Notes: generated by a model not told the origin, from the letters alone. Positions 27,889-43,954 are shown, numbered from the stretch's first letter. The stretch: 64,000 bases of DNA from Candidatus Microgenomates bacterium (GCA_016188915.1 JACPGU010000004.1:40198-104197); one strand, 5' to 3'. Translations and numbers: made by a program.

Positions 27889-27956
27889 TTTATTAAGTGA
27901 AAAGTGAGTCAGTAGATAAGAGCTTCTGACTTTTTATTAACTTTTCACTATGATTT

Positions 27957-27994
27957 GCCATCGTAGCTCAGTTGGTAGAGCATTTCCATGGTAA
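27957..27994 (+). pseudogene. 5' half of a split tRNA-Thr(GGT): acceptor, D-arm, and anticodon stem/loop up to ATGGTAA (attL)
   Basis: GCCATCG TA GCTC AGTTGGTA GAGC A TTTCC ATGGTAA, then unrelated island sequence. It pairs perfectly with the 3' half at 43858-43899. Confidence 0.75.
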
Positions 27995-28126
27995 TTATTT
28001 AGACGTAACAAATTCCTACCAAAATAAGGATTTTGTAAGTTACCAAAGCCACTTAATCTCTCTGATGGTTTTTTTGACGGGAATGTCTTACCAAGAAGCG
28101 ACCATCGGAAGGGAAATAAAGAAAGA

Positions 28127-28198
28127 GCCGATGTAGTTTAGCGGTAAAACGTCGCCATGGTAAGGCGAAGACCTCGGGTTCGATTCCCGACATCGGCT
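28127..28198 (+). tRNA. tRNA-Thr(GGT), island-borne replacement copy
   Basis: GCCGATG TA GTTT AGCGGTA AAAC G TCGCC ATGGTAA GGCGA AGACC TCGGG TTCGATT CCCGA CATCGGC T. Its anticodon loop is identical to the att core. Confidence 0.75.
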
Positions 28199-28233
28199 TT
28201 AGATAATAAAAGATACTGCCACCAAGGAAGGAG

Positions 28234-29139
28234 GTGGTATTTTTTATGGAGATAAAAACTCTTCTCCAAGAATTTTGTGATTATGCTCTCTATGCTCGAG
28301 GTCGGTCGAATAATACCATTAAGGGATATAGGTTTATTGCGAATCTTTTTTGTAAGGATACTGGAGTCGCCGAGATTGAAGATATTACCACCGATCTTGT
28401 TCGCAATTGGTTCTATCTAGGGAGGAAGGACAGAAAGTGGGCTCCTGCATGTTCTATTTCCTATCATAAGAACCTGACGGTTTTCTTCCGTTGGTGCCTA
28501 GACAACGGCTATCTAAAAAGCAACCCTTGCGATGATGTCGAATTACCTAAATTAGACAAGAGACTTCCTCCAAAATTAACCAAACAAGATTCTGCCAAAT
28601 TGCTAGAGTTTGTCTATAACTACCCGTATAATTATAGATTTCTGAGATTTAGGAATCATGCAATTTTTGCCACATTCATATTCGCAGGATTAAGGAAAGC
28701 CGAGCTATTAAATCTAAAATATACCGATGTTGATATCGAAAATATGTCTATTTTTATCAGACAGGGTAAGGGAAATAAAGATCGGATAGTCCCAATGTGT
28801 TATTCTCTGTCGACGATACTCAGAAAATACTTAGACGAAAGAAAACGACTACATAAAACTTGCCCCGAATTTTTCGCCTCTCTAAACCGTAATATGGGAT
28901 TTTGTGATAGTGGGCTAAGAAATCTAACCGTAAAAATGAGAGAAGAATCGGGGATTAAGTTTGGGATTCATAAATTACGCCATACCTTTGCCACCCTAAT
29001 GCTTGAAGGCGGTTGTGATATTTTCTCGCTATCAAAAATGATGGGGCATAGCGACATTAAAACAACGACCATCTATTTAGCCGCCAGCGTTGAACATCTG
29101 AGAAAGCAGATTTTGAATCACCCACTCAACAATTTATAA
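28234..29139 (+). CDS. Tyrosine-type site-specific recombinase/integrase
   Basis: C-terminal catalytic region HKLRHTFATLMLEGGCDIFSLSKMMGHSDIKTTTIYL (R..HxxR..Y signature). Lies 40 bp from attL and the island tRNA. Confidence 0.8.
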   Translation: MVFFMEIKTLLQEFCDYALYARGRSNNTIKGYRFIANLFCKDTGVAEIEDITTDLVRNWFYLGRKDRKWAPACSISYHKNLTVFFRWCLDNGYLKSNPCDDVELPKLDKRLPPKLTKQDSAKLLEFVYNYPYNYRFLRFRNHAIFATFIFAGLRKAELLNLKYTDVDIENMSIFIRQGKGNKDRIVPMCYSLSTILRKYLDERKRLHKTCPEFFASLNRNMGFCDSGLRNLTVKMREESGIKFGIHKLRHTFATLMLEGGCDIFSLSKMMGHSDIKTTTIYLAASVEHLRKQILNHPLNNL

Positions 29140-29162
29140 AATTAATCAAGAAAGGAGTTACT

Positions 29163-29732
29163 ATGAGAAAAATAGCCATATATGTGCGTGTTAGCACAGG
29201 AGAGCAGGATACGGATAATCAGATAACGCCCTTAAGCCAATATACAACCGATAGGGGCTGGGAGGTGTATAAGATATACGAAGATAAGGTCAGTGGGTCA
29301 AAAGAAGACAGAGAGGCCTTAAAAGAGCTTATGGACGATGCCCATAAGAGGAAATTTGACTGTATTATTGTTTTTAGATTTGATCGGTTCAGCCGGAGCT
29401 CCCGTCAACTTATTAATTCTCTCGATGTGTTTAAGTCACTTGGAATAGACTTCATTAGCTATCAAGAGAATATAGATACAACCACTCCAGCGGGCAAGGC
29501 GATGTTTACTATGATTTCTGCTTTTGCCGAGTTCGAGAGATCAATTATCCGTGAAAGAGTAAATGCCGGTATCGCCAAGGCTAGAGCAAGGGGCACTAAG
29601 CTAGGCAGGCCAAAAATAAAAATCGATATAGATCTACTAAAGAAATTGAAAAACAAGGGGTTGTCAATTCGCAAAATAGCCAAGGAGCTAGAAGTTCCGA
29701 AATCTACGGTGCATAGTCATCTGTGTGCGTAA
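29163..29732 (+). CDS. Small serine recombinase (resolvase/invertase family)
   Basis: MRKIAIYVRVSTGEQ (catalytic Ser motif), a resolvase core, and a C-terminal HTH (GLSIRKIAKELEVPKSTVHSHL). Confidence 0.8.
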   Translation: MRKIAIYVRVSTGEQDTDNQITPLSQYTTDRGWEVYKIYEDKVSGSKEDREALKELMDDAHKRKFDCIIVFRFDRFSRSSRQLINSLDVFKSLGIDFISYQENIDTTTPAGKAMFTMISAFAEFERSIIRERVNAGIAKARARGTKLGRPKIKIDIDLLKKLKNKGLSIRKIAKELEVPKSTVHSHLCA

Positions 29733-29920
29733 TCTGAGCTGTCCGTAAAACCATATCAAAAAGATGACAATATTGAACCTATAAAAGTTTCTCAAAAAGT
29801 TTGTACGATAAACAACTGTTTTTGGGACAACAAAAGAGGTTAGACGAATAATTATCTGTCTGGCCTTTCGGTTCTTGGTTCCATCATATTATTATCCATA
29901 GCCCACTTTCTTAGTTTTTG

Positions 29921-30076
29921 GTTTAATGGTAAATTTTAGAGGCTAAGATCGATGTTCTGTGCGATAATGTAGCCAAGATTATTATATCATTTAAATATAA
30001 GAATAAGATTGTTCGTTTTCTTAGCTTAAACAAGGAACAAAGCTTTGATTTTAGCCTCTATTTTTTACCATTAAGC
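29921..30076. repeat. 26-bp imperfect inverted repeat (22/26) flanking a 104-bp segment, just downstream of the serine recombinase
   Basis: gtttaatggtaaattttagaggctaa (29921-29946) against the reverse complement of ttagcctctattttttaccattaagc (30051-30076). The right arm overlaps the stop of the 30051-31091 CDS. Confidence 0.45.
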
Positions 30077-31091
30077 CTAGTTTTTCTATCCTCCTTAGTG
30101 CCCTTTGTTTATCCTTGTTGCTGTATTTTTCTATGGCATCCTTTTGTTGCTTCTCCCATTCGAAAAATCCCTCTCCATGCTCTATCATACTTTTGTCAAG
30201 ATTTAGTATCTGTAGCTCCACCTCTTTCTTTGTTATATCGGGGAGACCTTTAATGTAGTTGTAGAAGTGTTGGGTGTTCTCGTCTTCGTCTGCAATCTTT
30301 TCGATTGCCATCATATATTCTTTTGATAGAAGCTTACCAATCTGCTCAATTTGACTTTTTTCTAAAACAGGAAAAGGATTGTCTATCCCTGTTTTTTTAC
30401 TCCAATCGAACTTTATCGCTCCGATAGGGTATTTTAATAGGTGCAGAGTCACGACCAAAGTTGTTATTTCTCGATAAACATATAACCACTCCAATAAGGT
30501 TTTTTCTTGGAATGTCTGAAAGTTTGATTTCAGGATTCCTAGGTGGTTAGAATATCGATACCCTTTTGTGTGAACATAATTATGTAGAAGGCCTAGTTTA
30601 TTAAACCGTTCGCGAAGATTGAGCTTTTGATCAAATGTTTTAATGTTAGCGTTTGAGTATAGTATGTTCTGGATCCTATCTGCTTTCGGTGTATTTGAGT
30701 CCCAAGAGTCCTTCGACATTAGCCAATCTTTAACTGTTTTGTGCCCATCGTCGTTAATGTTGTAATAAACAGACAGCAATCCTAGTTCAAGGCTACTACG
30801 TAGTGATACGAAAGCTTGCTTATAAAAACCAAAGACCATGAGATTAAATGATATTTGTAGCTCTTCCCATGATTCTATATATGGGAAATAATGACCAGAC
30901 GAAAAATTCTCAATTGTTTGAGGTATTATGTCTCCTATGCCTTGATAAATCCACCCTACATCCTTGATCTCTTCTTTTATCTTTGGGTTTTTTAAGAAAA
31001 AAGCTTCTGTTTCCCTTAAAACAACATTACTTTTTTCCGGATCGTATGTGAACGGCATGTAATTAGCTGGGAATGGAATTGGGTTGCCCAT
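30051..31091 (-). CDS. Hypothetical protein (346 aa), stand-alone island cargo
   Basis: Intact ORF between AT-rich noncoding stretches. No motif I can assign. Confidence 0.4.
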   Translation of the reverse strand: MGNPIPFPANYMPFTYDPEKSNVVLRETEAFFLKNPKIKEEIKDVGWIYQGIGDIIPQTIENFSSGHYFPYIESWEELQISFNLMVFGFYKQAFVSLRSSLELGLLSVYYNINDDGHKTVKDWLMSKDSWDSNTPKADRIQNILYSNANIKTFDQKLNLRERFNKLGLLHNYVHTKGYRYSNHLGILKSNFQTFQEKTLLEWLYVYREITTLVVTLHLLKYPIGAIKFDWSKKTGIDNPFPVLEKSQIEQIGKLLSKEYMMAIEKIADEDENTQHFYNYIKGLPDITKKEVELQILNLDKSMIEHGEGFFEWEKQQKDAIEKYSNKDKQRALRRIEKLGLMVKNRG

Positions 31092-31390
31092 TTATAATTT
31101 GATAATCATCGTTTATTTTATACAGATACCGAATAACAACCGAATATTACTCTTTGAGAGTTCTCGCACGGCAACGGCCGAAAGGGGGCTCAAATGCGAG
31201 TGGGGTGGTTGTTTCGGAGCTTTTGTCTAGGTAGGGTTGTTCTGTAGTAAAACCCTCACGCGTTTTTAGGATGCTGAAAAAAATTCTATAATTTTTTTAA
31301 AGCATTTGTTCACTTAACAAGTGTTTTTAGAACTCTGCTTTCTTTTTACTCCTTCCTCCTCAAAACCCCGAGCGTAAGCTCGCGGGAAGC

Positions 31391-31672
31391 TTATGGTTCT
31401 GAAACCGTATCTACGGTGTCCATGCTGTCTAGAGCATATCCCATATCATCATAACTCTCCCAGGTATACCATTTTGCATCCTCTATGATGCTGTTGGCTT
31501 GTTCTATGTTGTCGTTAGCTTCACTTAACGCACTACGATACTCATCTATAGTGTCTTCCAGAGATGAATTTTGGCTTTGCAGGTCGGATATGGTGTTGTG
31601 GCTACTCCAAAGCCAAATGCCTGCTATCAATACTATAACAATGATTATCGTAGTTTCTTTTTTTTGTTCCAT
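31391..31672 (-). CDS. Small membrane-anchored coiled-coil protein with acidic C-terminus
   Basis: TM helix IIIVIVLIAGIWLW followed by a heptad-like region. Confidence 0.3.
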   Translation of the reverse strand: MEQKKETTIIIVIVLIAGIWLWSSHNTISDLQSQNSSLEDTIDEYRSALSEANDNIEQANSIIEDAKWYTWESYDDMGYALDSMDTVDTVSEP

Positions 31673-31912
31673 AGAGCTATCTATTTATTCCGTAACTTCT
31701 CGAACACACTTTATAGCTTAATTCAAGAACTGAAAGTGTACCAGCTTTTTTATTAGCTATATTAGCTAGCATTTTTTGTTACATGCAATCGTTGTAACCA
31801 TTGGTCTTATCTCAAACCAGCCAAAAAGCAAGACAAATAAAACTACCCACAAAATAGTTGTTAAGTGTTTTTTAATGGGTGTCAAAATATGCTTTATCTT
31901 CATTGTTACCTA

Positions 31913-32218
31913 TTATTTCTTTGGTAGTCGTCCACCGCTACTCAAGCAATCCGCGATAGAGTTATAGGGGGTAAAATTGGTCGTTTTCGAATAATAAGTG
32001 GTGCCTTCTCCATGGCAAATCCCCGTAGTGCTTTTTTTGACAGGAGGGTTTTCGGAGTCGCTACCACTACTAGGAATACTTTGGGTATTCTCTTGCTTGG
32101 CACTGCTATTTTTTGTACTACTTGCCCCTTTTGAATAGGCGAACACCAAACCAGCCATTACTAGGATGGCAACAACTACACCGATTATGACCCTGTATGT
32201 TGTGTTGAGCTTTACCAT
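31913..32218 (-). CDS. Small secreted/anchored protein ending in a conserved two-Cys C-terminal module (ICHGEGTTYY..FTPYN..CLSSGGRLP)
   Basis: N-terminal hydrophobic segment. The C-terminal 40 aa are nearly identical at protein level to the thermonuclease C-terminus, although the DNA has diverged. Confidence 0.45.
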   Translation of the reverse strand: MVKLNTTYRVIIGVVVAILVMAGLVFAYSKGASSTKNSSAKQENTQSIPSSGSDSENPPVKKSTTGICHGEGTTYYSKTTNFTPYNSIADCLSSGGRLPKK

Positions 32219-32445
32219 TTCTTATATCCTTTCTTGCTAGTGAAGGGGTTAAAATTACCTTTTGATGAAAAGTTATTAAACTTTTTCTTATCTGACTTTG
32301 TTTTATAATAAGGCATTACATAGGTGCCTCTCTTGGTGCTATAGCCCTTGACTCTCACATAAGCACTGGCAGAATTTGGCACAGCAAAAATCCCTATAGT
32401 CAGGATAAATAGACCCAAGACGATCGTGCCAATATATCTTTTCAT
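32212..32445 (-). CDS. Small basic secreted protein (Lys/Tyr-rich)
   Basis: Signal peptide MKRYIGTIVLGLFILTIGIFAVPNSASA, then KGYSTKRGTYVMPYYKTKSDKKK... Confidence 0.35.
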   Translation of the reverse strand: MKRYIGTIVLGLFILTIGIFAVPNSASAYVRVKGYSTKRGTYVMPYYKTKSDKKKFNNFSSKGNFNPFTSKKGYKKW

Positions 32446-32506
32446 TTTTCTCCCTTCTGATTATTTGTGGCTGTATTATACACATTAATTAGTAGAAAAG
32501 ATAGCC

Positions 32507-33469
32507 CTATCTTAACGGAAGTCTGCCTCCACTATCTAAGCATTCGTCAATAGTATTGTATGGCGTAAAGTAAATTGTTTGATTGTAATAGGTGGTTCCG
32601 GGAGCATGACAAATGCTGGTCTTACTTTTCTTTACTGGGAGTGTTGTAGTTGTAGTAGAAGGTGGGAGAGTCGGAGTTGTTGGTTGAGTAGCTGTCGGCG
32701 AACTCCCGCCAGATGTATTTTGGGTCGGAGTAGTTGCTTCTTGGGTCGTATCGCCCCCACACGCAGAGGCACTCCAAAGGCCTCTATTTGCCTCTATAGC
32801 TTGTTTCTCCGCCTCTTTGAACTCTTGTTGGTATTTGTAGGGATTGCTCTGATAGGTGTATTCATGAGCGTAGCCGTCTAGGATCATTTTTTTATTAAAG
32901 TTTGTGCCGTCTTCAAGAAAAACAAACCGCAACAATCTCCCGTATTTGTCTCTTTCGTTTTGTGTAAGGTCTTTTTCAAGACGCACTTTTTGTTCTGTAA
33001 GGATCATTTTGGCTCTGTCTGAGGCCTCTTTGCCGAAGCATTGTACTGGCTTGCGAGGATCTACCGTTTCCGGTGTGTCTATACCAACAAGCCGAATGGC
33101 TTCTAGCTTGCCACTTATCTCAACCTTGATAGTGTCGCCATCAGTAACGCTGGCTACTAGATAGAGGGTATCGTCGAGCGAAGTGGTGCTATCTTCTGCT
33201 GACTTCTCTTGCTGATTTTTACTTGCTTCTATATTTGCTTCATCCTTAGTTTGTTTTGGCTGATTAGTGTTTGTGGCACCATTGGTTGTTTTTGGAGCTG
33301 TAAGCCCAACGCCAACGAAAAACACAAAACTGGCAATACCAAAAATTAGGCCTATCGATTTTCTCGCAACACTGCCTTTCAAAATACGAGAGAAAATAGA
33401 TGGCTTAATGAGACCAGCAACCAAGGAGATTAGAGATAGGATAAACAGCAGAAAAAATACAAGAGTCAT
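32507..33469 (-). CDS. Membrane-anchored thermonuclease (staphylococcal-nuclease-like) with a Thr/Pro-rich linker and a C-terminal two-Cys module
   Basis: SNase core motifs (VTDGDTIKVE...IRLVGIDTPET...RDKYGRLLRFVF). N-terminal TM helix. Low-complexity TTPTQ..PTTPTLPPSTTTT linker. C-terminus ...SICHAPGTTYYNQTIYFTPYNTIDECLDSGGRLPLR. Confidence 0.7.
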   Translation of the reverse strand: MTLVFFLLFILSLISLVAGLIKPSIFSRILKGSVARKSIGLIFGIASFVFFVGVGLTAPKTTNGATNTNQPKQTKDEANIEASKNQQEKSAEDSTTSLDDTLYLVASVTDGDTIKVEISGKLEAIRLVGIDTPETVDPRKPVQCFGKEASDRAKMILTEQKVRLEKDLTQNERDKYGRLLRFVFLEDGTNFNKKMILDGYAHEYTYQSNPYKYQQEFKEAEKQAIEANRGLWSASACGGDTTQEATTPTQNTSGGSSPTATQPTTPTLPPSTTTTTLPVKKSKTSICHAPGTTYYNQTIYFTPYNTIDECLDSGGRLPLR

Positions 33470-33480
33470 AAGATTCGTTT

Positions 33481-33921
33481 TTATAGATAGTATTCATAAA
33501 GAAAATATCCGATGACGGCTATCAAAAATCCTATGCCAAGTATCTTCCAAATTGCTCCAACGCCATCACGCTCATTATCGGTCGTTTGATTACTTTGCGA
33601 TACTGATGTTACGGCTTGATTATTTACCTTCGCCTCTTCTTTTTTTGGCTCCGGTATCACAGGCGGAGGAGTAGGATTGACTTGTAGCTGGGGTGTAGTT
33701 GGCAATAATCTTTTTGGCTCTGTACAGCTCGGATAATATGGAGCACAAGTAGCAGAAAATGGCGTGCCATCATTACAGCCACAGGTGCCTACTCCACCAT
33801 GGTGCGAGCAACATCCAGATCGAGCATATGATGTAACCGGAATCGTGATTACAGCAACAAACATGAAAAAACTAGCGATACCTATGTTTAGACGCAATTT
33901 GTTATCGTTCTGGTTATGCAT
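33481..33921 (-). CDS. Cys-rich, Pro-rich small membrane protein
   Basis: N-terminal TM helix, CCSHHGGVGTCGCNDG...CAPYYPSC, and a C-terminal TM helix. Confidence 0.3.
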   Translation of the reverse strand: MHNQNDNKLRLNIGIASFFMFVAVITIPVTSYARSGCCSHHGGVGTCGCNDGTPFSATCAPYYPSCTEPKRLLPTTPQLQVNPTPPPVIPEPKKEEAKVNNQAVTSVSQSNQTTDNERDGVGAIWKILGIGFLIAVIGYFLYEYYL

Positions 33922-35359
33922 TTTTTAAAATAGGAATTTTGAATTCGTTTACCGCCCTGCTGATGCCTTGTTTCATTGATGTGTACATTTTCTTTAGTTT
34001 CAATATTTTCTTGTCCCACATACTTTCAATCTTAATCATAGTCTCTTTTTGGCGACCAACACTCTCATTTATAGATTTTACTTCTGCGTTTATTCTACTG
34101 ATGTTGTCCTCTGTATTTTTCTTTAATACTTCAATCTCTGGATAAAAAGTAGCATTTTGTAATATGGTTTTTTTGCTTTCCTCTAATTGAACGATCTCAT
34201 TTTTTAATCTGCTAATCTTTTTTATACACACTCTACGATGCTTAATATTGCGTAGCTTAAAAGTGATATTTAGAATAATGAGAGTTATCGTTGTAAATAG
34301 TAATTCAATAGGTGCAGTAACGTGTTGCTGTTTGAGGCCAATATGTTTCCACCAATATGTTACAAGTAGGGAAGCTGGTATTGTAAAAATCCTGAAGACT
34401 TGGTTAAAATTATGTGTAATATCAGAACTAGATGCCGACCATAAGATAGCTAAAGTGATTGCCAATATTCCTAAAGCAAAGTTGACGATCAGATAAATAG
34501 CGTAAAAAGCCTTTGCGTAGGTATTGCTATTTTTCGATACAGATGGGTATGTGAGCTCCGCAAGTAAAAGGAGGGAGATTGGGATTACTACACCAAAAAT
34601 TACACACCACATATTCAGGCTTATTTCTGAAAGCCCATAATTGATGAATACCTCTCGTGCGAGTCCAAACATTATGAATACTTCCGCAAGGAATAATATT
34701 ATGGCAGGCAAAGCTATTATAATTTTTATGATACTTTCCGACAATATACTGGACAATTCATTTTGCCTTGCAGATAACCCATGTATCTTTTGTAATAAAT
34801 CCTCCGATTCCTTACTCTTTTCCCTAAACTCTCGTTCTAGGCTCTGTATGGCGATTCGGTAATCGTCTATCTGCTTATTAATTTCGTTGATCTGTTTTTC
34901 TGCTCCGTTAATATGATCTTTATACTCTTTAGACCCCCGCAGTGTCTTTTCTCCGTTCACCATATCATCTAGTGTAGTATCAGTATCTCGCAGGAGTTGC
35001 TTTTTTCGTTCCTCAAGAGCAGAAATATTATTTCTTATCTCCTCGGATTTTCTTTTTAATATACTTTCTGCTTCTTCTATTCTTTTATCAAAATCGTAGC
35101 CTTCTAGTACAGAATTTTGTATCTCGGACGAGAATATCGGCGATAACTTTGTCGCTGATAGATTAGTATTATTTTCTGACAGGCTTCGCCAAATAGCTAT
35201 ACCGGCTCTTTTTATTTTACCCTTCGCCAATCTATATCCCCTGAATTCGTAATCAAATCTATACTTGAGAGCAAAGTATGTCTTGATTAATACAGCTATA
35301 ACTAAAACGGTTGCTAGTCCATATAGAGCCATGATGATGTTGTCTTTCTGTATGATCAT
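33914..35359 (-). CDS. Multi-TM membrane protein with long coiled-coil segments
   Basis: N-terminal TM helix, heptad-rich stretches, 4-5 central TM helices, and a C-terminal coiled coil. Separated by 2 nt from the upstream zinc-ribbon gene. Confidence 0.35.
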   Translation of the reverse strand: MIIQKDNIIMALYGLATVLVIAVLIKTYFALKYRFDYEFRGYRLAKGKIKRAGIAIWRSLSENNTNLSATKLSPIFSSEIQNSVLEGYDFDKRIEEAESILKRKSEEIRNNISALEERKKQLLRDTDTTLDDMVNGEKTLRGSKEYKDHINGAEKQINEINKQIDDYRIAIQSLEREFREKSKESEDLLQKIHGLSARQNELSSILSESIIKIIIALPAIILFLAEVFIMFGLAREVFINYGLSEISLNMWCVIFGVVIPISLLLLAELTYPSVSKNSNTYAKAFYAIYLIVNFALGILAITLAILWSASSSDITHNFNQVFRIFTIPASLLVTYWWKHIGLKQQHVTAPIELLFTTITLIILNITFKLRNIKHRRVCIKKISRLKNEIVQLEESKKTILQNATFYPEIEVLKKNTEDNISRINAEVKSINESVGRQKETMIKIESMWDKKILKLKKMYTSMKQGISRAVNEFKIPILKNA

Positions 35360-35361
35360 GA

Positions 35362-36681
35362 TTAAGAAGTTAATAGTTTATCGTAGATGGTTTTTATCTC
35401 GTCGCGACAAGCTCCGATTGATCCGCTGTCTGTTAGCCCTACGGGTATTATCTGTATACTGTATGGTTTTTGCGTAAAGTTAGCTTTTAGGTTCTGTACC
35501 TGCCATGATCCCAAATAGTAACTAGAAAAATTATCATTTTTTTGTGGGCGACTACCGCATTGCTTGCTGGAGTCTGAACTTTGATCTTGTAGGCACTGCT
35601 CATAGGTCTGTATTCTGTAAATAAATTGTGCTGATATGTAGTTTTTATATCTCGTGCAGTCAGAATAAGTGAGTCCATAAGCATAATAAGCAAAGGGAAA
35701 TTTTATGTTACCTGCAACTATCAATACGCCAGTTATGTTTTTATAGCCCCTATTCACATAACCGTTCATATATTCGTTTATTTTGGCGTAGTAATCAGTA
35801 AAATTAATATCCTCCGGCTTGTTTCCAACATCGCTAAAATAGGCTTTTATTTTTGATACGATATCTTTGTAACCATAGACCGTCATTGTCTTTTCTCTGC
35901 CATCGTCATCGTTCTGTTTGTCATTATCGATTGCATCAAATTCTATTACTTTCGTACCGTTGTGATCGTAATTAGTAATCTTCATAGATATGTTGATTTT
36001 CCTTGTCAGCTTAAGCGATTTATTAGATCCATAAACATCTAAGACCAAGCTATCATTGAACTTAAGTGGTCCCTGCTTATTAAAAATATCCGCGATAACG
36101 CTGTCTGTATCGTCATCACTTAATTTGCTAGATAGGTTTATATATGTAAGCTTGCGTTCCGCGGTTTGGCTATCAACCATCATAAACTCATCTTTGAATT
36201 CTCTATTTAAGCATTGATTGTTTTTACATGAGGCGAGAATTTTATCAACCGAAATATGAATAGGCGTTTTATTGATACTGTCGCTTTCTATTGGTACAAG
36301 ATCAAGGGACGACCCTATTTCATTTCCATTCATTTTATAGTCAAAATATTTTTCCATCCTTTTGGTAAATATGATTTTCATGGTTGTCTTGCTGTTTCCT
36401 CCGGCAAGAATAGTCCTAGCATTGTCATTTTTGTAAATGAATATCCCTCCAAGCAAAACTATCAGGATGAATATCCCGATTATAGTTGCGATAATTAATG
36501 TTTCCTTGATAGTTCCTGTCATTTTCTTACCACAATTAGAACAAAAGGAAGCTTTTTTTACCTCTTTATTACAATTACTGCATTTTATTTTCGTTTTACC
36601 CGTAACCACAGAATAACCACAGTCAACGCAAAAATTGACTCCTTCGTCTAGCTCATGACCACATTGAATACAGTTGGGCAT
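35362..36681 (-). CDS. Double-zinc-ribbon membrane protein with a large extracytoplasmic domain
   Basis: N-terminus CIQCGHE..CVDCG...CSNCNKE..CSNCGKK, one TM helix, and an extracellular region of about 330 aa. Confidence 0.4.
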   Translation of the reverse strand: MPNCIQCGHELDEGVNFCVDCGYSVVTGKTKIKCSNCNKEVKKASFCSNCGKKMTGTIKETLIIATIIGIFILIVLLGGIFIYKNDNARTILAGGNSKTTMKIIFTKRMEKYFDYKMNGNEIGSSLDLVPIESDSINKTPIHISVDKILASCKNNQCLNREFKDEFMMVDSQTAERKLTYINLSSKLSDDDTDSVIADIFNKQGPLKFNDSLVLDVYGSNKSLKLTRKINISMKITNYDHNGTKVIEFDAIDNDKQNDDDGREKTMTVYGYKDIVSKIKAYFSDVGNKPEDINFTDYYAKINEYMNGYVNRGYKNITGVLIVAGNIKFPFAYYAYGLTYSDCTRYKNYISAQFIYRIQTYEQCLQDQSSDSSKQCGSRPQKNDNFSSYYLGSWQVQNLKANFTQKPYSIQIIPVGLTDSGSIGACRDEIKTIYDKLLTS

Positions 36682-36879
36682 GCGTGTAATCTTAGATAAA
36701 ATAAGAGATTAGAGTATTGCTAAGGACTACCGTGGTTGCCATAACTCTAAGTTATACCTATGATAAGCTATTATTTAGATAATTGCAAGGCCCGGAGAGC
36801 GTAAAGGCAGATGATGCCCACAGCAATCCTATAGTTTAAGAAAAAAGCCTTTTATCCGAGTCATGATTGACGGTTTAGC

Positions 36880-37416
36880 CTAATTGTTTTGGCTATCAAG
36901 ATTTTCCAGTGCCCTTAGTGCCTCCTCTCTCTCGTATGGGTTGAACGACTGGATCGTTATAGGCTCTTTTCCTGTGATGTCAGATAACTGATGATGGCTG
37001 GTTTTAGTCACCACTAACTGATATTTTCTATCTTTACATATAATCTCGTAATCACCATTAAGGAAATCTAAAAATTCACTCAAGTCGCCTTTGTCTATCA
37101 ATGTGTGATAACTGCAATAACTTCCCTTTTCATCAATTCTTGGGCGACTTTGGATTATGATATGATTTGTCTCCATATCGCGAACAGCGAAGAATGCTCC
37201 TGTAGTTAGCCATTGCCCACAGCGATTTTCTGAAATACCGCCATAATCCTTTGGGGCGTATCGATAATACATCATCATTTTTTCTAGATCGTACCCGTTC
37301 TTAACAGACATAAGAGCGTCCCATTCTTTGCGACTAAAAACCTTAATATCATCTTGGGTATCGCCAGCCTTTTCTTCCTTATTTGGTTTCATGAGGCCTT
37401 CTTTTAGTAATAGCAA
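36880..37416 (-). CDS. Hypothetical protein (last gene of a 5-gene island operon)
   Basis: ORF overlaps the upstream gene, suggesting translational coupling. Confidence 0.3.
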   Translation of the reverse strand: MLLLKEGLMKPNKEEKAGDTQDDIKVFSRKEWDALMSVKNGYDLEKMMMYYRYAPKDYGGISENRCGQWLTTGAFFAVRDMETNHIIIQSRPRIDEKGSYCSYHTLIDKGDLSEFLDFLNGDYEIICKDRKYQLVVTKTSHHQLSDITGKEPITIQSFNPYEREEALRALENLDSQNN

Positions 37417-37705
37417 GATTGACTATGAAGATAACGCTAGCCACCACATTAAAAGTCGCCCATATTTCTCTTTGGAAGTAAAAAGAGGCGATGGGGTTAA
37501 AAATGATAGCGATAACAGCGAATATCCAAAGCCAGAGTTGATCTTTCTCCTCGTATTCACTATACGCAGAATACGCGGAGACACCACAAACTAACCATCG
37601 CAGGAACTGATAGTAGAAATACGGCCAGTGCAAAACGGCTATCAATAAAGCGATAGCCGAAATAGCCTTTAAGGTGGCTAAGTAATTGGTATCGTGTTTA
37701 TTCAT
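37379..37705 (-). CDS. Small 3-TM membrane protein
   Basis: Hydrophobic helices. ATGA start/stop overlap with the upstream gene. Confidence 0.3.
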   Translation of the reverse strand: MNKHDTNYLATLKAISAIALLIAVLHWPYFYYQFLRWLVCGVSAYSAYSEYEEKDQLWLWIFAVIAIIFNPIASFYFQREIWATFNVVASVIFIVNLAITKRRPHETK

Positions 37706-38259
37706 GAGGGCACATAGATGTTTGCTATATTAAAAAGTTCTTGCATCATGGGGATTTCTTTGTATTCAGCCAAGAGAGAGACCTGACGCGATATACCTCC
37801 CTCCCTAAACATCTCTCTGGCTTTCTTTGTTTTGCCTAAATGATGGAGAGAGCCGGCGTATAGAAAGACGATATCTGCCATCGGAAGGCCATCGAAACCA
37901 TAAGGTTGGGCACCTATTTTCATATCATGAATATCGCAAGTAAGCTTTTCGCATTTCTCATATTCGCCGAGGCAATATAGGGCAACGGCACTGAAGAAGT
38001 AGGGGAGATAAAAGTTCGGATGCTCTTTCGTCATTCCCTCCATTGCTCCCAACGCTTTTTGGAAGTTTTCTTTACTGTGATCGCGTGAAAAGGAATCCAT
38101 CACCTTAGACATCCTAATATATCCCCTGATAAGATCAGATTTATCATTTGACATAAGGGAGTTGAATATGGAGTATTGGTCTTTCTTGGCGGGCATAAGA
38201 TTATTTTTATTCTTTTTGGTTGTAATGGTTATGAGGGGAAACCAGCTCTTTATTTTCAA
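37702..38259 (-). CDS. Helical (TPR-like) hypothetical protein
   Basis: The true start is probably the internal Met near 38196. Shows an alpha-helical repeat character. Confidence 0.3.
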   Translation of the reverse strand: MKIKSWFPLITITTKKNKNNLMPAKKDQYSIFNSLMSNDKSDLIRGYIRMSKVMDSFSRDHSKENFQKALGAMEGMTKEHPNFYLPYFFSAVALYCLGEYEKCEKLTCDIHDMKIGAQPYGFDGLPMADIVFLYAGSLHHLGKTKKAREMFREGGISRQVSLLAEYKEIPMMQELFNIANIYVPS

Positions 38260-38956
38260 TAGGCCAGTTAAGCTTGTCTTCTCGCCATAGAAGAGAGCTT
38301 ATTTGGATGCCTAGATTGTTTTTCTCTTGCCCATAATCTAGGTCATCTATAACCAAAGCTCTTCCTTTTTTGTCTAATTCTTTCGTAACCTTCAGCTTGT
38401 TATCGAGCGGACTGTCCCTTTTTATTTTTTTCCTGTCTAGCCCAATCCGTGAAAAAGTAGCACCTACATTATTCGGAGCAACAGAAAAAACATTCTCATA
38501 ATCAAAGGCCAGAATTTTTCCGTCACACAAAAGATTTAAAGAATCAGAAATCATTTTCAGATATTCTTGGTTAACGTCTGACAATATCCCCATCTTCAAT
38601 CTAGGAAACTGTAGTCTGATAAAACATAATAAAGGGACTATACTTTCTCTAAAAATAATTTTCTTGTCCTTCGGCACTCCCAAAGTACCCCAAACATCCC
38701 ATAATAGATACTGATCTTTTATCTTTAAGTTTTTAAACCTCCTCTCAACATTTTCTGTAACTGATTTGCAAAAAGCTTTTTCTTCTTCAAAAATAACATC
38801 AATTAGCCCGTTTGTATATGTATCGTCCAAAGAAGGGGCATTCTTTTTTATTCTTTGTGATATTTTTTGAAATATTTGCTTGTTTACTTTTTCATCCAAA
38901 AAATCATTCCAAAAACCTTTTGGTTTTTCTTGTTTTGGTTCAAAAGACTTTCTCAT
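38207..38956 (-). CDS. Hypothetical protein with degenerate HAD-hydrolase-like motifs
   Basis: LWDVWGTLG (motif-I-like, second Asp replaced), GILSDVN (motif II-like), and ALVIDDLDYG (motif IV-like). Tentative. Confidence 0.25.
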   Translation of the reverse strand: MRKSFEPKQEKPKGFWNDFLDEKVNKQIFQKISQRIKKNAPSLDDTYTNGLIDVIFEEEKAFCKSVTENVERRFKNLKIKDQYLLWDVWGTLGVPKDKKIIFRESIVPLLCFIRLQFPRLKMGILSDVNQEYLKMISDSLNLLCDGKILAFDYENVFSVAPNNVGATFSRIGLDRKKIKRDSPLDNKLKVTKELDKKGRALVIDDLDYGQEKNNLGIQISSLLWREDKLNWPIENKELVSPHNHYNQKE

Positions 38957-38982
38957 TTATTACGCCCCACTTACCTTGCTAG

Positions 38983-39318
38983 TCATACACTTTTATTTTC
39001 TGAATAAATCATAACTCCGCCTATCAGCCCGAAAATTATCATTGAAATGAGTTCTGTCGTATTGTCGTCCATTCCCATGAATGATAGTACGGTGCCTATT
39101 ATTGGCGGAATGATAAAAAGGATTACCAATTTTATTATAGTCTGAATATGTTTTTTATGCACCCTTGTCCTTTGCTCTATTTCCTGTTTTATGCCTTCAG
39201 AACTGCGTCCCAAAGTGCACAAAGCATTGTCATTATCCCCATATTTTTTTCTCAATTCCAATAACTCTTTTAATTTTCTTTTATTCTCCGCTCCTTGTGT
39301 TTCTTCCCAGCCAAACAT
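38983..39318 (-). CDS. Small 2-TM membrane protein (first gene of the operon)
   Basis: Charged N-terminus followed by two TM helices. Confidence 0.3.
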   Translation of the reverse strand: MFGWEETQGAENKRKLKELLELRKKYGDNDNALCTLGRSSEGIKQEIEQRTRVHKKHIQTIIKLVILFIIPPIIGTVLSFMGMDDNTTELISMIIFGLIGGVMIYSENKSV

Positions 39319-39485
39319 ATTTTTGTGTAAAATAATATTTTGGATCGAACAAAGACTCCTTCGTTACGCAGATAATTAATGCCAGAAAAATCTGAAGATT
39401 CTTAAATAAAAGTTTTTGATAGGACTGCCTATACGGCATATAAGAATCAGAATCGTTGGAATAAGAACAAAGAACGGATATATTT

Positions 39486-41027
39486 TTAGCTTACTGTTAT
39501 GTTAGTCCCTGATTGTGGCTTAGTTACAGAAGGCGTATTGGTTATATTCTTAGAAGACGGACTGTTGTTGACCGGATTACTAGAGGCTTCATTTTTCACT
39601 TCAATTTGCCAGTATATTCCTAAATCTTGCATCCATGTTATCTCTTCCGTAACAGGAGTGAAATACGCCTTATAAATACCGGGATCCTTTGGTGCTCTAA
39701 TCATAAATTCAAATCTGGTATGCCAACCTGGTCTGATTTCATCATGAAGCATTGTTATAGCCCTATTACCTGACAGCCACGAATCATAGTCGTAAAACTC
39801 TGAGATATAATCTCTATGTTGACTAGAAGTTCCGAATTTTGATCCACTACCAAGTTTTATAGCATTTATGCAATCTTTATACCATGTGGCCTTGCCAGTA
39901 TTTTTTACTTCTATCCAAACATTTGCTCTTTCTCCTGGATACAAAGTTTCGGGATAAGGAGATTGTTTTATTATTTTGAAGCTATATGAAGATGGCGGAT
40001 ATTGGGGGCAGGTTTTTGTGGATTTTGGTTTACTCGTGGTAGTCACAGAATCTGTGTTACTAGTGTTGTTGCCAGTATTGGGCGTGCTATTATTTGTGTT
40101 GTCTGTAGTGTCAATTTTATTTACACAGTTATCTGTAGCCTTGTCATATGTCCCACCACCTGACCCGAGCATACATATAACGCTTTTCTGCACATCCTCT
40201 TGTGCATTATCTCCTCCCTTGGTTATTTCAATTCCATGCCAGTCATATGTTTCTTCTCCAAAAGCATATTTATACCAAAAATTTATCGTTGCCACTGGTA
40301 TAACATATCCCTCTAGTGTATATCCTATGTTTTGATCTCTGATGCCAGCACTGGTTAGGCCAATAAATTTGCCTTTTTTGTCAAAAGCCGCTCCTCCTGA
40401 GCTACCAAAACTAATTTGAGCATTGGTAACAATTGTCGGCAGTCCTTTATAGGAATAATCAAGTCTTGTTATAAATCCTTTAGCGTAGTTCATATTTCCA
40501 TTTGCATAGTCAGGAAATCCTAGCGTTTTAACTTCATCGTTAATATTCGAGCTATCTCCCAAATCATAGCCATATGTAGAAAACTTAATCGAGTCAAACT
40601 GCAACATGGTGTCACTGATAGGTATATTTGCAATGCTCTGCCATTTACCATCTGCCAACTTGTAATTTATATGAAGTATTGCTATATCAAGCTGTTCATT
40701 ATACTTGGCTGGCACTGTAACCGCCAAGCCTAGATTATGATAGGCATCTGCCAGAAAATCGCACTTGAGTGATTCGTAAGTGCTGGCTTTGTGACAGATT
40801 ACGGCCTTATAGTCGTTCGGATATTTTATTATTTTCTCTGCAACATGATAATTAGTAAGAATTGACAAGTCTGTATATACGCCAGACCCCCATTCTTGTA
40901 AGTTCCAGTTTTTATCAAAAATCTGTATTTGTACCACGGAGCGAACATTGGAATCGGTAACTTGTGCACGGACAAGATTAGGGAATGCTAGCCCGACAGC
41001 AATCATCAAAATGATTATTTTCTTCAT
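39486..41027 (-). CDS. Secreted trypsin-like (S1) serine protease with a Thr/Asn-rich linker and a C-terminal domain
   Basis: Signal peptide MKKIIILMIAVGLAFPNLVRAQ. Catalytic His (TNYHVAEK), Asp (DIAILHI) and Ser (GSSGGAAF). Confidence 0.65.
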   Translation of the reverse strand: MKKIIILMIAVGLAFPNLVRAQVTDSNVRSVVQIQIFDKNWNLQEWGSGVYTDLSILTNYHVAEKIIKYPNDYKAVICHKASTYESLKCDFLADAYHNLGLAVTVPAKYNEQLDIAILHINYKLADGKWQSIANIPISDTMLQFDSIKFSTYGYDLGDSSNINDEVKTLGFPDYANGNMNYAKGFITRLDYSYKGLPTIVTNAQISFGSSGGAAFDKKGKFIGLTSAGIRDQNIGYTLEGYVIPVATINFWYKYAFGEETYDWHGIEITKGGDNAQEDVQKSVICMLGSGGGTYDKATDNCVNKIDTTDNTNNSTPNTGNNTSNTDSVTTTSKPKSTKTCPQYPPSSYSFKIIKQSPYPETLYPGERANVWIEVKNTGKATWYKDCINAIKLGSGSKFGTSSQHRDYISEFYDYDSWLSGNRAITMLHDEIRPGWHTRFEFMIRAPKDPGIYKAYFTPVTEEITWMQDLGIYWQIEVKNEASSNPVNNSPSSKNITNTPSVTKPQSGTNITVS

Positions 41028-41069
41028 ATTTTCTTGTTACTTGTATAAAATATAAAATAAAATTTGCAA

Positions 41070-41180
41070 CAAAAAGGGTCGCCCGATACAGCGGAGTCCC
41101 TTGCGAGCCTCCATGCACACTTTCGAGTGCATACCATATGCATGATACCGATCAGACGACCGTTTATATGCATGTGGTTT
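41070..41180. other. GC-richer structured noncoding segment (candidate small RNA or regulatory hairpins)
   Basis: ATGCAC..GTGCAT hairpin, repeated CATATGCATG / TATATGCATGTGG, ending in GGTTTTTTTGACC. Sits in the 300-bp gap between divergent genes. Confidence 0.2.
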
Positions 41181-41325
41181 TTTTGACCATGCTATCAACA
41201 AATAAGCTGATAGTTTAGGTCTTTTTTACGAATTGTAGCTATATTGTAGCATGGCTAAAAAGCAATGTAAAGTATCAAGGATTTAGTGATATACTTAGAA
41301 TAGAAATATTATTTTTTGTTTTAAT

Positions 41326-41547
41326 ATGAAATATCTACTCGTGTCAGATGATAATCATAAGTACCCAGTACAGGTAATGGATGTATCACAAAGACCACCG
41401 AAATTGGTAAGAAAATTTCCTCCCGGACAGGAGGAGCAAGCAATGGAGTGGGTAACTGAACTGTATGAGAAAGAAGAGAAACAGAAAGAGCAGAAGCAAA
41501 TTACGACTAACCCCGACATCCATGGAGGCAAAGCCATTGAGAATTAG
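41326..41547 (+). CDS. Small hypothetical protein (73 aa)
   Basis: ORF only, acidic C-terminus. Overlaps the next ORF. Confidence 0.2.
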   Translation: MKYLLVSDDNHKYPVQVMDVSQRPPKLVRKFPPGQEEQAMEWVTELYEKEEKQKEQKQITTNPDIHGGKAIEN

Positions 41548-42190: not shown

Positions 42191-42582
42191 CCGTTCTCTG
42201 TAGATTAAGATTCTGGCAAATATTTTATTGGCAATCTCGGTTGTGTAAAGGTGAAAAGAAACAGAATATAGTTGAGCCCAACGGACGACCTGGGGTTCTG
42301 TTGTTTTATTTTGATTAGAATTTGTGGTATTATTCTCAATAGATTTAGACAACTAAGAGCTTTTTTAGCGACATAAATGTTGTCCAAAAATGGCTCTTGC
42401 GTAATGGCTGGGACATTGCTAACATACTGGCAGAAACCGGTGCTCGAATTATGAATATGAAAACTTGAGGTGTAGTAATCTGCTTTCTTTAAGAAAGCCT
42501 CTTGCACTTCACGATTCAATTCGTAATCCGAGCTTTTTTATTATTAAGCAAGAGAGGAGGACATAGCAAACTGGTCGATAAA

Positions 42583-42658
42583 ATATGAATATAAAATTAT
42601 GAATATCTAAATATGAATATGGGAGATTTATACTATTAAAGTTAGGAGATATTCATAT
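42583..42658. repeat. Four copies of the 10-bp motif ATATGAATAT (three direct at 14-bp spacing, one inverted) directly upstream of the second integrase start
   Basis: Read at 42583, 42597 and 42611, and inverted at 42649. Candidate arm-type or operator sites. Confidence 0.5.
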
Positions 42659-42659
42659 C

Positions 42660-43607
42660 ATGACTGATAAATCAAATAAAACATTGTTGCAATGGCACGA
42701 AGAGTTTTGTAGCATGCAACAACATGTTCGTGGATTGCGACCAGCCACTATTGATAGCTTCAGGAATACTTTCAGGGTATTCTCCAAGCTAACCTCAGAA
42801 GATCTTATGCCAGGTATGCTCACTAATGCTTTGATAATTCAATTTTTTACAAAATTGAACACAAGAGAGCGGAAGGTAGGCGTTACCGTTAAATCGGGGA
42901 TAAAGACAAGCACGACGAGCACTTATTACAGTAAGCTAAAGCCATTTTTTGACTATTTGGTCAGGCAGAAAATTATTGAGATAAGTCCATTTGACGGAAT
43001 AGATAAGCCAAAAGTATCGTATGAGGACGTAAAATATCTCAAAAAAGAACAAGTAGAAAAGATATTAACAGCAATCGCTCTTAATGTTGATTGGAAAAAT
43101 GATTTCATTAAAAGCAGAAATCTTGCAATGATCCACATATTATTGTTTACAGGCATCAGAAAAGGTGAGCTGTTAAATCTTAAAGTAACTGATTTTGATT
43201 TTAATACTGGGTTAGTAAAAGTAAATGGGCAAACATCAAAATCAAAAATAGATAGAGAAGTGCCGATAAACACTCGGATCATAAAGATAATCAAAAGCTA
43301 TCTTGCTGACAGAAAGGCATCTAACTGTCCTTTTTTCTTTGTTGGAGAAAGAGGAGAGCGTTTCACCGAATCGGGGCTAAAACACCTGATTGAGAAAATT
43401 AAAGACGCAAGCAATATTAGGTTTCATATTCATCAGTTCCGACATACTTTCGCAATGAATATGGTGAACAAGGGTTGCGATATAGCCAGACTCCAATGTC
43501 TAATGGGGCACAAGGATATTAGACAAACATCCGTATATCTTCGAAAAATGCCCTCAGTTATAGTTAGAAATACGATTGAGTTACTTGATATTGATACCTT
43601 GGTGTAG
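42660..43607 (+). CDS. Tyrosine-type site-specific recombinase/integrase (second copy)
   Basis: C-terminal HQFRHTFAMNMVNKGCDIARLQCLMGHKDIRQTSVYL. N-terminal SAM-like core-binding domain. Lies 250 bp from attR. Confidence 0.8.
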   Translation: MTDKSNKTLLQWHEEFCSMQQHVRGLRPATIDSFRNTFRVFSKLTSEDLMPGMLTNALIIQFFTKLNTRERKVGVTVKSGIKTSTTSTYYSKLKPFFDYLVRQKIIEISPFDGIDKPKVSYEDVKYLKKEQVEKILTAIALNVDWKNDFIKSRNLAMIHILLFTGIRKGELLNLKVTDFDFNTGLVKVNGQTSKSKIDREVPINTRIIKIIKSYLADRKASNCPFFFVGERGERFTESGLKHLIEKIKDASNIRFHIHQFRHTFAMNMVNKGCDIARLQCLMGHKDIRQTSVYLRKMPSVIVRNTIELLDIDTLV

Positions 43608-43621
43608 AGCAATAAAGGTCA

Positions 43622-43740
43622 TTTAAAGGATTGATGTCGGGAAGTGCTTATGATAAGATATAAAGAACAATATCAGTAAAATATTAATAAGCGATAGCGG
43701 TATCAATCCTTTATGGCCTTTGAGCTATTAAAGGATTTTA
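43622..43740. repeat. Three copies of TAAAGGATT (one inverted) between int2 and attR. A similar AAGGATTTT occurs next to attL at 28021.
   Basis: tttaaaggattgat, atcaatcctttat and ttaaaggatttta. Candidate integrase or excisionase arm sites. Confidence 0.4.
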
Positions 43741-43857
43741 TTATCAAAGATAGAGGAATAAGAACAGGTCACCGGCTACTATCGGCCAAGTGGTCAAAAA
43801 TATGAAGTCCGTGCCTATACAGAGCCAAGAACGCGAGAAGATGGGTAGACCTCATAA

Positions 43858-43899
43858 ATGGTAAGGAAAAGGTCACCGGTTCAAATCCGGTCGATGGCT
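43858..43899 (+). pseudogene. 3' half of split tRNA-Thr(GGT): ATGGTAA core (attR), anticodon stem 3' strand, variable loop, T-arm, acceptor
   Basis: ATGGTAA GGAAA AGGTC ACCGG TTCAAAT CCGGT CGATGGC T. It complements the 5' half at 27957-27994 exactly. Confidence 0.75.
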
Positions 43900-43902
43900 T
43901 TG

Positions 43903-43954
43903 GCCACCTTAGCTCAGTCGGTTAGCCTCCGGCCCGGAGGGAGCAACCGCCTTG
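43903..43954 (+). pseudogene. 5' half of a second, decayed split tRNA (Thr-like body) with a 15-nt hairpin inserted in the D-loop
   Basis: GCCACCT TA GCTC AGTCGGTTAG [CCTCCGGCCCGGAGG] GAGC A ACCGC CTTG... The acceptor pairs with AGGTGGC at 44094-44100. Confidence 0.5.

Follow-up and report, generated by a model that had tools for sequence, protein, structure and literature searches.

A probable integrative element that divides a tRNA-Thr(GGT) gene at its anticodon loop and carries a complete tRNA-Thr(GGT) in a Candidatus Microgenomates bacterium

In the genome of Candidatus Microgenomates bacterium (GCA_016188915.1), a member of the candidate phyla radiation (CPR), two fragments of a single tRNA-Thr(GGT) gene lie about 15.9 kb apart, and the locus raises the question of what divided the gene and what stands in for it. 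We addressed this question within a stretch of 64,000 nucleotides (JACPGU010000004.1:40198-104197; hereafter the window, from whose first letter all positions are counted), starting from an initial annotation that had been made from the sequence alone. As described below, the DNA lying between the fragments (27995-43864; hereafter the island) is most likely an integrated mobile element, which would have been inserted by tyrosine recombination at the anticodon loop together with a complementing tRNA.

The divided tRNA-Thr(GGT) gene and its junctions

The 5' half of the host gene reads GCCATCG-TA-GCTC-AGTTGGTA-GAGC-A-TTTCC-ATGGTAA, and the 3' side reads ATGGTAA-GGAAA-AGGTC-ACCGG-TTCAAAT-CCGGT-CGATGGC-T (Table 1). 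When 27957-27994 was joined to 43865-43899, ARAGORN recognized a 73-nt tRNA-Thr(ggt) with all cloverleaf stems paired, in good agreement with the initial annotation, which had placed the split in the anticodon loop by manual reading. The heptamer ATGGTAA, corresponding to the entire anticodon loop, was found at both junctions as a 7-bp direct repeat (27988-27994 and 43858-43864), with 15,863 bp between the two copies. The left junction (attL) runs on into ATGGTAAttatttagacg, and the right junction (attR) is preceded by cctcataa. As had been claimed, neither of them rebuilds the gene; no tRNA was called at either junction by ARAGORN or Rfam over the whole window, and the orphan halves were missed as tRNA even by Rfam in its sensitive mode. 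They were instead detected by ARAGORN on joined sequences and by a regular expression for the T-arm. The sequences predicted for the rejoined host site (attB) and for the junction of a circular form (attP) are ...GAGCATTTCCATGGTAAGGAAAAGGTC... and ...GGGTAGACCTCATAAATGGTAATTATTTAGACGTAAC..., respectively.

The island was further confirmed to contain a complete tRNA-Thr(GGT) gene, divergent in sequence from the host gene and called by both Rfam and ARAGORN 132 bp from the left end. Also as annotated, a gene for a tyrosine recombinase lies near each end (Int1 on the left and Int2 on the right), and a gene for a serine resolvase/invertase is present. On the host side, holB and a TPR gene are located to the left of the island and the L33 gene and tRNA-Trp to the right, with the target tRNA-Thr(GGT) gene sitting between tRNA-Tyr and the L33 gene. 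Further tRNAs called in the window by ARAGORN and Rfam were tRNA-Tyr (27805-27889), tRNA-Thr(TGT) (43973-44045) and tRNA-Trp (44425-44496).

Such an arrangement could in principle arise from an assembly chimera formed through the similar 5' parts of the tRNA-Thr genes, given that 27955-27982 and 43971-43998 constitute a 28-nt repeat with 96% identity and that Logan contigs tend to end in the tRNA cluster (L001 ends at 27792 and L002 starts at 43991). However, a single 32.6-kb Logan contig, SRR12113420_12881, covers positions 27819-60459, and its fetched parts (27819-39732 and 32660-53607) were 100% identical to the window across both junctions. From a second sample, the 16.1-kb contig SRR12113422_368166, whose full span is approximately 27965-44019 by arithmetic, was likewise 100% identical over the fetched 32660-44019, including the right junction. 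Since the same junction design also appeared in five unrelated assemblies, the chimera is effectively refuted, and the concern in the initial annotation that the junctions might be assembly errors was not substantiated. The short-read Logan contigs L001, L002 and L004 break in the tRNA cluster (27792, 43991 and 44019 of the window), and these breaks fit the repeated tRNA-Thr 5' parts.

The composition of the island also differed from that of its flanks, both in k-mer profile and in skew, as the initial annotation had proposed to verify. The tetranucleotide distance between island and flanks was 0.022, compared with 0.008-0.012 for host segments of equal size; the guanine-plus-cytosine (GC) content was 37.7% in the island versus 41.2% in the flanks; and the GC skew was reversed across 30-41 kb. 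Elsewhere in the window, the segment 12001-17000 had a GC content of 0.45-0.52 versus approximately 0.40 in the rest.

Recurrence of the junctions and an uninterrupted gene in relatives

Loci and contigs of relatives (designated by L-numbers) were fetched through homologs of Int1 and Int2. L094 contains a second complete element, in which 7.1 kb separate two halves that together form a tRNA-Thr(ggt). On its left side, tRNA-Tyr, tRNA-Thr(TGT) and an orphan 5' half (GCCGTTG...CGTCC-ATGGTAA) are followed by ~130 nt, a tRNA-Thr(GGT) and an Int1-like gene (64%), and on its right side, small regulators, an Int2-like gene (47%) and two further genes precede the sequence tttg-ATGGTAA-GGACG-AGGTC-GCCAG-TTCAATC-CTGGC-CAACGGC-T. 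Another pair of ends came from a sister organism sampled in JGI 3300027896, ENA ERZ27247850 and SRR5272259. The left end (L099/L100) comprises a TPR gene (69%), tRNA-Thr(TGT), tRNA-Tyr and the 5' half GCCATCG...TTTCC-ATGGTAA; this core is followed by tcatttagacacc (tcatttagac), compared with ttatttagacgtaac in the window, and by ~125 nt that lead to a tRNA-Thr(GGT), Int1 (82%) and a counterpart of the resolvase (65%), which occupies the same position in L099, L100 and L101. The right end (L010/L011, from the same JGI and ENA samples) carries Int2 (58%), a box containing AGGTCA and then the core, its attR reading acatac-ATGGTAA-GGAAA-AGGTC-ACCGG-TTCGATT-CCGGT-CGATGGC-T, followed by the L33 gene (65%). 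Two more junctions involve other host genes: in L098, an attL with a different 5' half (GCCGAGA...CTTCC-ATGGTAA), a tRNA-Thr(GGT) and Int1 (66%), and in L030, an attR in which Int2 (39%), the box and ATGGTAA are followed by the 3' half of yet another tRNA-Thr(GGT), whose 5' half was not found within 10 kb.

In L025, the same parts occur uncut, in the order AGGTCA box, ~90 nt, tttAATGGTAAag, ~125 nt, tRNA-Thr(GGT) and Int1. This attP-like order corresponds exactly to the circle junction expected from joining 43608-43864 of the window to 27995-28233. The recurrence in other genomes indicates that the island belongs to an element family and is not a one-off, and the comparison defines a conserved module consisting of the core, ~130 nt, tRNA-Thr(GGT) and Int1 at one end and LOOT RNA, Int2, the AGGTCA box and the core at the other. 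Between the ends, the cargo genes of the window element and the L010 element have none in common. Int1-like and Int2-like genes co-occurred in 10 fetched loci in several arrangements, frequently flanking a tRNA or the 5' half of one, and the pair is therefore a conserved unit. On account of this co-occurrence, a composite of two unrelated elements was rejected as an explanation of the island; transposition with a 7-bp target duplication was also rejected, since no transposase is encoded and insertion is at the same specific site throughout the relatives.

More distant Int2/Int1 pairs were observed next to intact tRNA-Lys genes or 5' halves ending at the anticodon loop. The tRNA was of the Lys type in L020, L024, L028 and L029, the orphan half in L028 being a tRNA-Lys(CTT) that ends ...CTCTTAA; the pair in L026 lies beside a tRNA or half with an Ala-type anticodon (TGC), and in L032 an intact tRNA-Arg has a lone Int1-like gene next to it. 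L024 and L032 each contain a further copy of the loop heptamer, ~130-150 nt upstream of Int1. Some contigs among L020, L024, L026, L028, L029 and L032 are GC-rich and probably do not derive from CPR bacteria. L012 (9865-11190) has a comparable layout: an orphan 5' part of tRNA-Val(GAC) with the whole anticodon arm precedes an Int2-like gene (45%), behind which lies a tRNA-Val(GAC) that is complete but divergent in sequence. The 3' part of the tRNA-Val was not found within 10 kb.

Two relatives, L102 and L104/L105, were chosen through the TPR protein of the left flank and thus independently of any integrase. L104/L105 (GCA_022703645.1, an 867-kb contig) keeps the gene order of the window, namely holB and TPR, then tRNA-Tyr, tRNA-Thr(TGT) and tRNA-Thr(GGT), and then L33 and tRNA-Trp, and its tRNA-Thr(GGT) gene is uninterrupted (L105, 11391-11463). 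Neither an integrase nor orphan halves are present there. An uninterrupted syntenic allele, which the initial annotation had wished to see in a relative, therefore exists, so that one observation named there as refuting, the lack of such an allele in any genome, does not hold. In addition, a scan of a genome collection with the host 3' half ACCGGTTCAAATCCGGTCGATGGC returned only two tRNA-Thr genes of Endomicrobia, which are not relatives. Taken together, L094, L099/L010, L025 and L105 strengthened the central proposal of an integrative element with a crossover in the anticodon loop and a replacement tRNA of its own.

We also considered whether the two halves could still function as a split tRNA gene of the Nanoarchaeum type, whose separately transcribed products are joined or paired in trans; this would explain their perfect conservation. 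Both halves are indeed undecayed, and, although the neighboring arm has diverged, no more than 2 nt distinguish the 3' half of the window from that of L010. Nevertheless, the sequences beside the halves (ttatttagacg and gacctcataa) are AT-rich and non-complementary, with no complementary leader or trailer extensions; a complete replacement gene is present; and separate insertions into a conserved gene explain the conservation equally well. To our knowledge, moreover, no splicing endonuclease that joins split tRNAs has been described in bacteria. We consequently regard a functional split gene as extremely improbable.

Recombinases, proposed integration mechanism and known systems

Int1 and Int2 are paralogs with 34% identity, and both proteins are listed at NCBI under a Candidatus Microgenomates bacterium. 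In the alignment of the Int2 family, R153, H258, R261, H284 and Y293 were invariant, corresponding to the catalytic R, H-x-x-R, H and Y, and matching motifs were identified in Int1. According to Pfam, both proteins of ~300 aa consist of a SAM-like core-binding domain and a catalytic domain, with no arm-binding domain. In size, domains and catalytic residues, they were thus in good agreement with simple (Xer-like) tyrosine recombinases. The public gene call for Int1 starts at 28246 (297 aa), and its 2263 homologs include many with ~65% identity; the gene adjoins the element tRNA in L094, L098, L099 and L025. In these respects, Int1 and Int2 resemble the Xer-type simple recombinases, which include the 'Cand' subgroup from candidate phyla (Smyshlyaev et al., 2021; PMC8138268). 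Like XerC/XerD, they form a conserved pair, but one residing in a mobile island flanked by tRNA halves and not at a dif site, and their joint action in the manner of XerC/XerD would be a reasonable hypothesis.

Table 1. Features of the island and corresponding features in relatives (window coordinates unless a locus is named).
Feature	Position	Strand	Evidence
Orphan 5' half of host tRNA-Thr(GGT)	27957..27994	+	Sequence; ARAGORN once joined to 43865-43899
attL core ATGGTAA (entire anticodon loop)	27988-27994	+	End of 5' half
P' arm, 132 nt from core to element tRNA, beginning TTATTTAGACG	27995..28126	+	Homologous start TCATTTAGACACC and similar spacing in L099
Complete element-borne tRNA-Thr(GGT), intronless	28127..28198	+	Rfam tRNA 71.2 bits (call span 28126-28199); ARAGORN Thr(ggt)
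Int1, simple (Xer-like) tyrosine recombinase	28234..29139	+	Pfam PF00589, 1.2e-27
Serine resolvase/invertase	29163..29732	+	Pfam PF00239, 1e-46
Inverted repeat, ~32-nt arms each with TTAATGGTAAA, around ~94 bp	29920..30077		DNA fold z = -5.6
Cargo block: SNase-type nuclease, trypsin-like protease, DUF6804, zinc-ribbon protein, Rz-like/DUF2570 protein, matchless proteins	30051..41027	-	Pfam, PHROGs
LOOT RNA (RF03000)	41093..41221	-	68.5 bits vs gathering score 46.4
ATATGAATAT repeat cluster just upstream of Int2	42583..42658		3 exact copies vs 0.24 expected in whole window
Int2, simple tyrosine recombinase	42660..43607	+	Pfam PF00589, 1.1e-35
P arm	43608..43857	+	TAAAGGATT x3, conserved box, possible D-arm relic
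TAAAGGATT repeats, 3 copies	43624-43737	+	Copy count
Conserved box AACAGGTCA	43763-43771	+	Invariant in window, L010, L030, L094, L025
attR core ATGGTAA and orphan 3' half of host tRNA-Thr(GGT)	43858..43899	+	Sequence; ARAGORN joined
LOOT RNA in relatives	L010 5253-5385; L012 8271-8397; L030 8871-8989; L098 17643-17767	-	4 matches, 68-77 bits
Intron-bearing element tRNAs in relatives	L099 1598-1875; L098 9677-9961; L094 1497-1777; L025 13626-13890		

The arm-like repeats reported in the initial annotation are real, and its count of three for TAAAGGATT was reproduced, although the ATGAATAT-type repeat, stated to occur four times, was found in only three exact copies. The same annotation had read a degenerate copy of the tRNA 3' part just inside attR (43767-43795) as a relic of earlier events at the site. 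A match to AGGTCACCGG is indeed present around 43766, but it coincides with the box AAnAGGTCA, which did not vary among the five right-end or attP-like sequences that were aligned and which lies ~85-95 nt upstream of an ATGGTAA core that is invariant as well. Because this box is conserved in all relatives, its interpretation as a scar of older insertions was rejected; it is more likely a predicted protein-binding site of the P arm. In the same register, a stretch of the P arm beside the core (GGGTAGAC; 43840-43857, gatGGGTAGAcCtcataa) is similar to the D-arm region of the tRNA (gttGGTAGAGCatttcc), and it may be either a relic of a 5' half once present in attP or a chance similarity.

On the basis of these features, we propose that the attP of the circular form would have the order Int2, P arm with the AGGTCA box, ATGGTAA, ~130 nt, tRNA-Thr(GGT) and Int1. 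One or both of the tyrosine recombinases, acting at putative exchange points, would exchange strands across the 7-bp ATGGTAA as the predicted overlap, that is, across the whole anticodon loop; members of this enzyme family normally cleave at sites 6-8 bp apart (PMC10865867). Integration would leave two dead tRNA halves, both junctions being dead because the identity between attP and the gene is limited to the 7-bp loop. The complete tRNA-Thr(GGT) carried 132 bp inside attL, presumably expressed and needed, would compensate for this loss and render the integration tolerable, and it might thereby tie the cell to the element, or at least to the tRNA of the element, by analogy with the tRNA-dependent lysogeny discussed below. 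The integrated element would probably still be able to excise.

Several points weigh against this interpretation. The core is flanked in attB by the anticodon stem, a natural inverted repeat (TTTCC/GGAAA), and in attP by CATAA/TTATT (cATAA/TTATt), and this difference leaves the recognition of both sites by the recombinases unexplained. Both recombinases are short Xer-like proteins without an arm-binding domain, yet the arms bear repeats. The tRNA-Thr(TGT) that is also present might partially cover the ACY codons. For this organism, neither a circular junction nor an empty-site contig was found, the two Logan assemblies containing the integrated form only, and look-ups of the exact flank-gene proteins returned only short Logan contigs that end at the tRNA cluster, hence no empty-site allele. 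Finally, the site is also occupied in the sister lineage, where host and element proteins are about equally diverged, a situation compatible with old vertical inheritance in place of current mobility.

This last point raises the possibility that the island is an old, immobilized and vertically inherited insertion whose recombinases have been repurposed or are idle. The identities to the sister organism (Int1 82%, resolvase 65% and Int2 58% versus 69% for the host TPR protein and 65% for L33) are compatible with it, as are the two samples with the integrated form only, and the broken tRNA-Thr(TGT) with a nested replacement next to the island (see below) indicates that such insertions can decay where they are. 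Conversely, the core copies are identical and the halves undecayed, with the adjacent arms diverged; both recombinase open reading frames (ORFs) are full length and retain the catalytic residues; the window and L010 elements have entirely different cargo; and an uncut attP-like form as well as an empty site in one relative were observed. The occupancy of the sister lineage itself is compatible both with repeated insertions into a conserved gene and with an old, inherited insertion whose cargo has turned over. An immobilized insertion thus appears rather unlikely in comparison with an integrated mobile element, but the suggestion in the initial annotation that the insertion is recent could not be confirmed, since an element also occupies the site in the sister lineage, with host proteins of just 65-69% identity.

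With respect to gene content, the cargo is encoded mainly on the minus strand (Table 1), and the island also has two small plus-strand ORFs. The inverted repeat lies directly downstream of the invertase gene, and the TTAATGGTAAA in its arms is the same heptamer as the att core; the segment is possibly invertible, with a putative role in the mechanism. Its region had the identical orientation in the one Logan contig fetched there (SRR12113420).

Instead of a plain genomic island, the element could be a temperate phage of a CPR bacterium, or a phage satellite, with tRNA-dependent lysogeny. Its logic is identical to that of the phages described in PMC10865867, matches to phage families were obtained for the nuclease, invertase and protease, there was a weak match to an Rz-like spanin/DUF2570 protein, and XRE/ImmA-like regulators in L094 and a LexA-like gene in L012 were found. 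However, no capsid, portal, terminase or tail family was detected among the 19 ORFs with Pfam and PHROGs, libraries in which proteins of CPR phages are poorly represented; scans of IMG/VR with Int1 and Int2 gave distant integrases only (23-27% identity over full-length matches); the size is small (15.9 kb, and 7.1 kb in L094); and the cargo is unrelated between elements. We therefore consider a phage or satellite improbable, and retain the reading of an integrated mobile island.

Regardless of this question, the initial annotation had presented the arrangement as a departure from known designs, and here it has to be revised, as the arrangement matches the tRNA-dependent lysogeny reported in 2024 for actinobacteriophages such as Fionnbharth, LeBron and Gaia (Guerrero-Bustamante and Hatfull, 2024; PMC10865867). 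In those phages, attB lies within a tRNA gene, and integration at a common core of only 8-17 bp does not restore that gene; lysogeny depends on a phage-encoded tRNA of the same isotype, which compensates for the lost one. The same paper cites the Lj965 prophage of Lactobacillus johnsonii, and later papers mention tRNA-dependent lysogeny for Sinorhizobium prophages. The island shares with these systems the att site in a host tRNA gene, the tyrosine recombinase and an element tRNA of the lost isotype. It differs in its CPR host, in the lack of detected phage structural genes, and in that the necessity of the tRNA is suggested by analogy; its core is exactly the 7-bp anticodon loop; it possesses two paralogous Xer-like recombinases together with a serine recombinase and LOOT RNA, in contrast to the one lambda-like integrase of the phages; and its spare tRNA belongs to the att region, at ~130 bp from the core, and has a group I-like intron in most relatives. 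The principle is thus already published, and what is new is the element family and its host; no paper describing such elements in CPR bacteria was found.

Classical tRNA islands and prophages (P4-like; Islander database, PMC4383910) likewise have a tyrosine integrase, a tRNA target and direct repeats at their ends. They carry the 3' part of the tRNA, however, and regenerate the gene at one junction, whereas neither junction of the window island does so and the repeat is just 7 bp. The anticodon loop is reportedly a known sublocation of crossover, as Williams is said to have described in 2002.

LOOT RNA, tRNA introns and nested tRNA remnants

In the window, L010, L012 and L030, the LOOT RNA is encoded opposite to the Int2-like gene and 0.5-1.6 kb upstream of it, and in L098 it lies inside the element (Table 1). 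We know of no function assigned to this RNA.

In contrast to the copy in the window, the element tRNA-Thr(GGT) contains an intron-like insert of 191-210 nt after ATGGT in four of the five relatives, and thus the 7-bp att core is split within the spare gene (ATGGT|AA). Removal of the insert in silico gave a tRNA-Thr(ggt) in L094, L098, L099 and L025, and the intron-bearing tRNA of L099 has the same acceptor (GCCGATG/CATCGGC) and the same T stem (TCGGG/CCCGA) as the element tRNA of the window. A U.G pair at the 5' splice site and a terminal G were present in all four inserts, and an alignment-based fold revealed compensatory changes in 32 of 72 pairs, although no match to the group I family RF00028 was obtained with Rfam at E<=1. 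These features suggest that the insert is a group I-like intron. Group I introns are known in bacterial tRNAs, namely cyanobacterial tRNA-Leu and tRNA-fMet and Azoarcus tRNA-Ile; the present insert has group I-like helices as well, but it resides in the isoacceptor Thr(GGT), in a gene carried by an integrative element. Related cores (GAATAACGGTTAA...AGACCGTGGCG...GACTGACAAGGG...ATACAGTCC) interrupt ORFs in two IMG/VR viral contigs, L107 (~9440-9600, minus strand) and L108 (~700-880, minus strand), one of them adjoining an HNH endonuclease gene.

Immediately beside the island, a second broken tRNA was observed at 43903-44101. It is a GCCACCT-type tRNA-Thr(TGT), consisting of a 5' part (43903-43954) and a 3' part (44064-44101) and interrupted twice: its D loop holds a GC hairpin of 16 nt, and its anticodon loop an insert of 109 nt. 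The latter is made up of the complete tRNA-Thr(TGT) located at 43973-44045 and 18 GC-rich nt on either side of it. Removal of both inserts gave a tRNA-Thr(tgt) by ARAGORN, nearly identical to the intact genes of L102 and L099. In the tRNA cluster of L102 (10700-11630), in which no integrase was found, an intact GCCGTTG-type tRNA-Thr(GGT) is nested between fragments of a TTTCC/GGAAA-type tRNA-Thr(GGT), and the anticodon loop of a tRNA-Tyr is interrupted by a cassette, which contains an ORF for a GIY-YIG endonuclease, a second and complete tRNA-Tyr and the repeated GC palindrome CCACCCTACGGGTGGTCACCCGCAGGGTG. These nested remnants suggest repeated takeover of tRNA genes by cassettes that would bring a replacement copy, and those at 43903-44101 and in L102 suggest that a spare tRNA may be kept after decay of its element.

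A broader and more speculative scenario would regard such islands as one stage of an addictive cycle of tRNA replacement that is widespread in CPR bacteria. An element with two recombinases would break the tRNA in its anticodon loop and supply the only working copy, and after decay of the element just its tRNA would survive, nested in the broken host gene. The tRNA-Thr genes would then be serially replaced by element alleles, the intron would shield the spare gene from use as an att site, and LOOT would be a regulatory or recombination RNA of the module. We consider this scenario possible but doubtful as a whole.

At the level of the integrated element itself, a mechanism that has so far been demonstrated only in actinobacterial phages, with prophage candidates elsewhere, would extend to CPR bacteria, in elements unlike phages. 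The module is recognizable, and with more than 2000 homologs of Int1 it may help to delimit many mobile islands in CPR genomes, while the orphan LOOT RNA motif gains a genomic context. Recombinases that have a short core, are specific for the anticodon loop and come with their own complementing tRNA could also serve as integration tools. For the organisms themselves, these observations suggest that the tRNA genes of reduced genomes can be subject to takeover by mobile elements.

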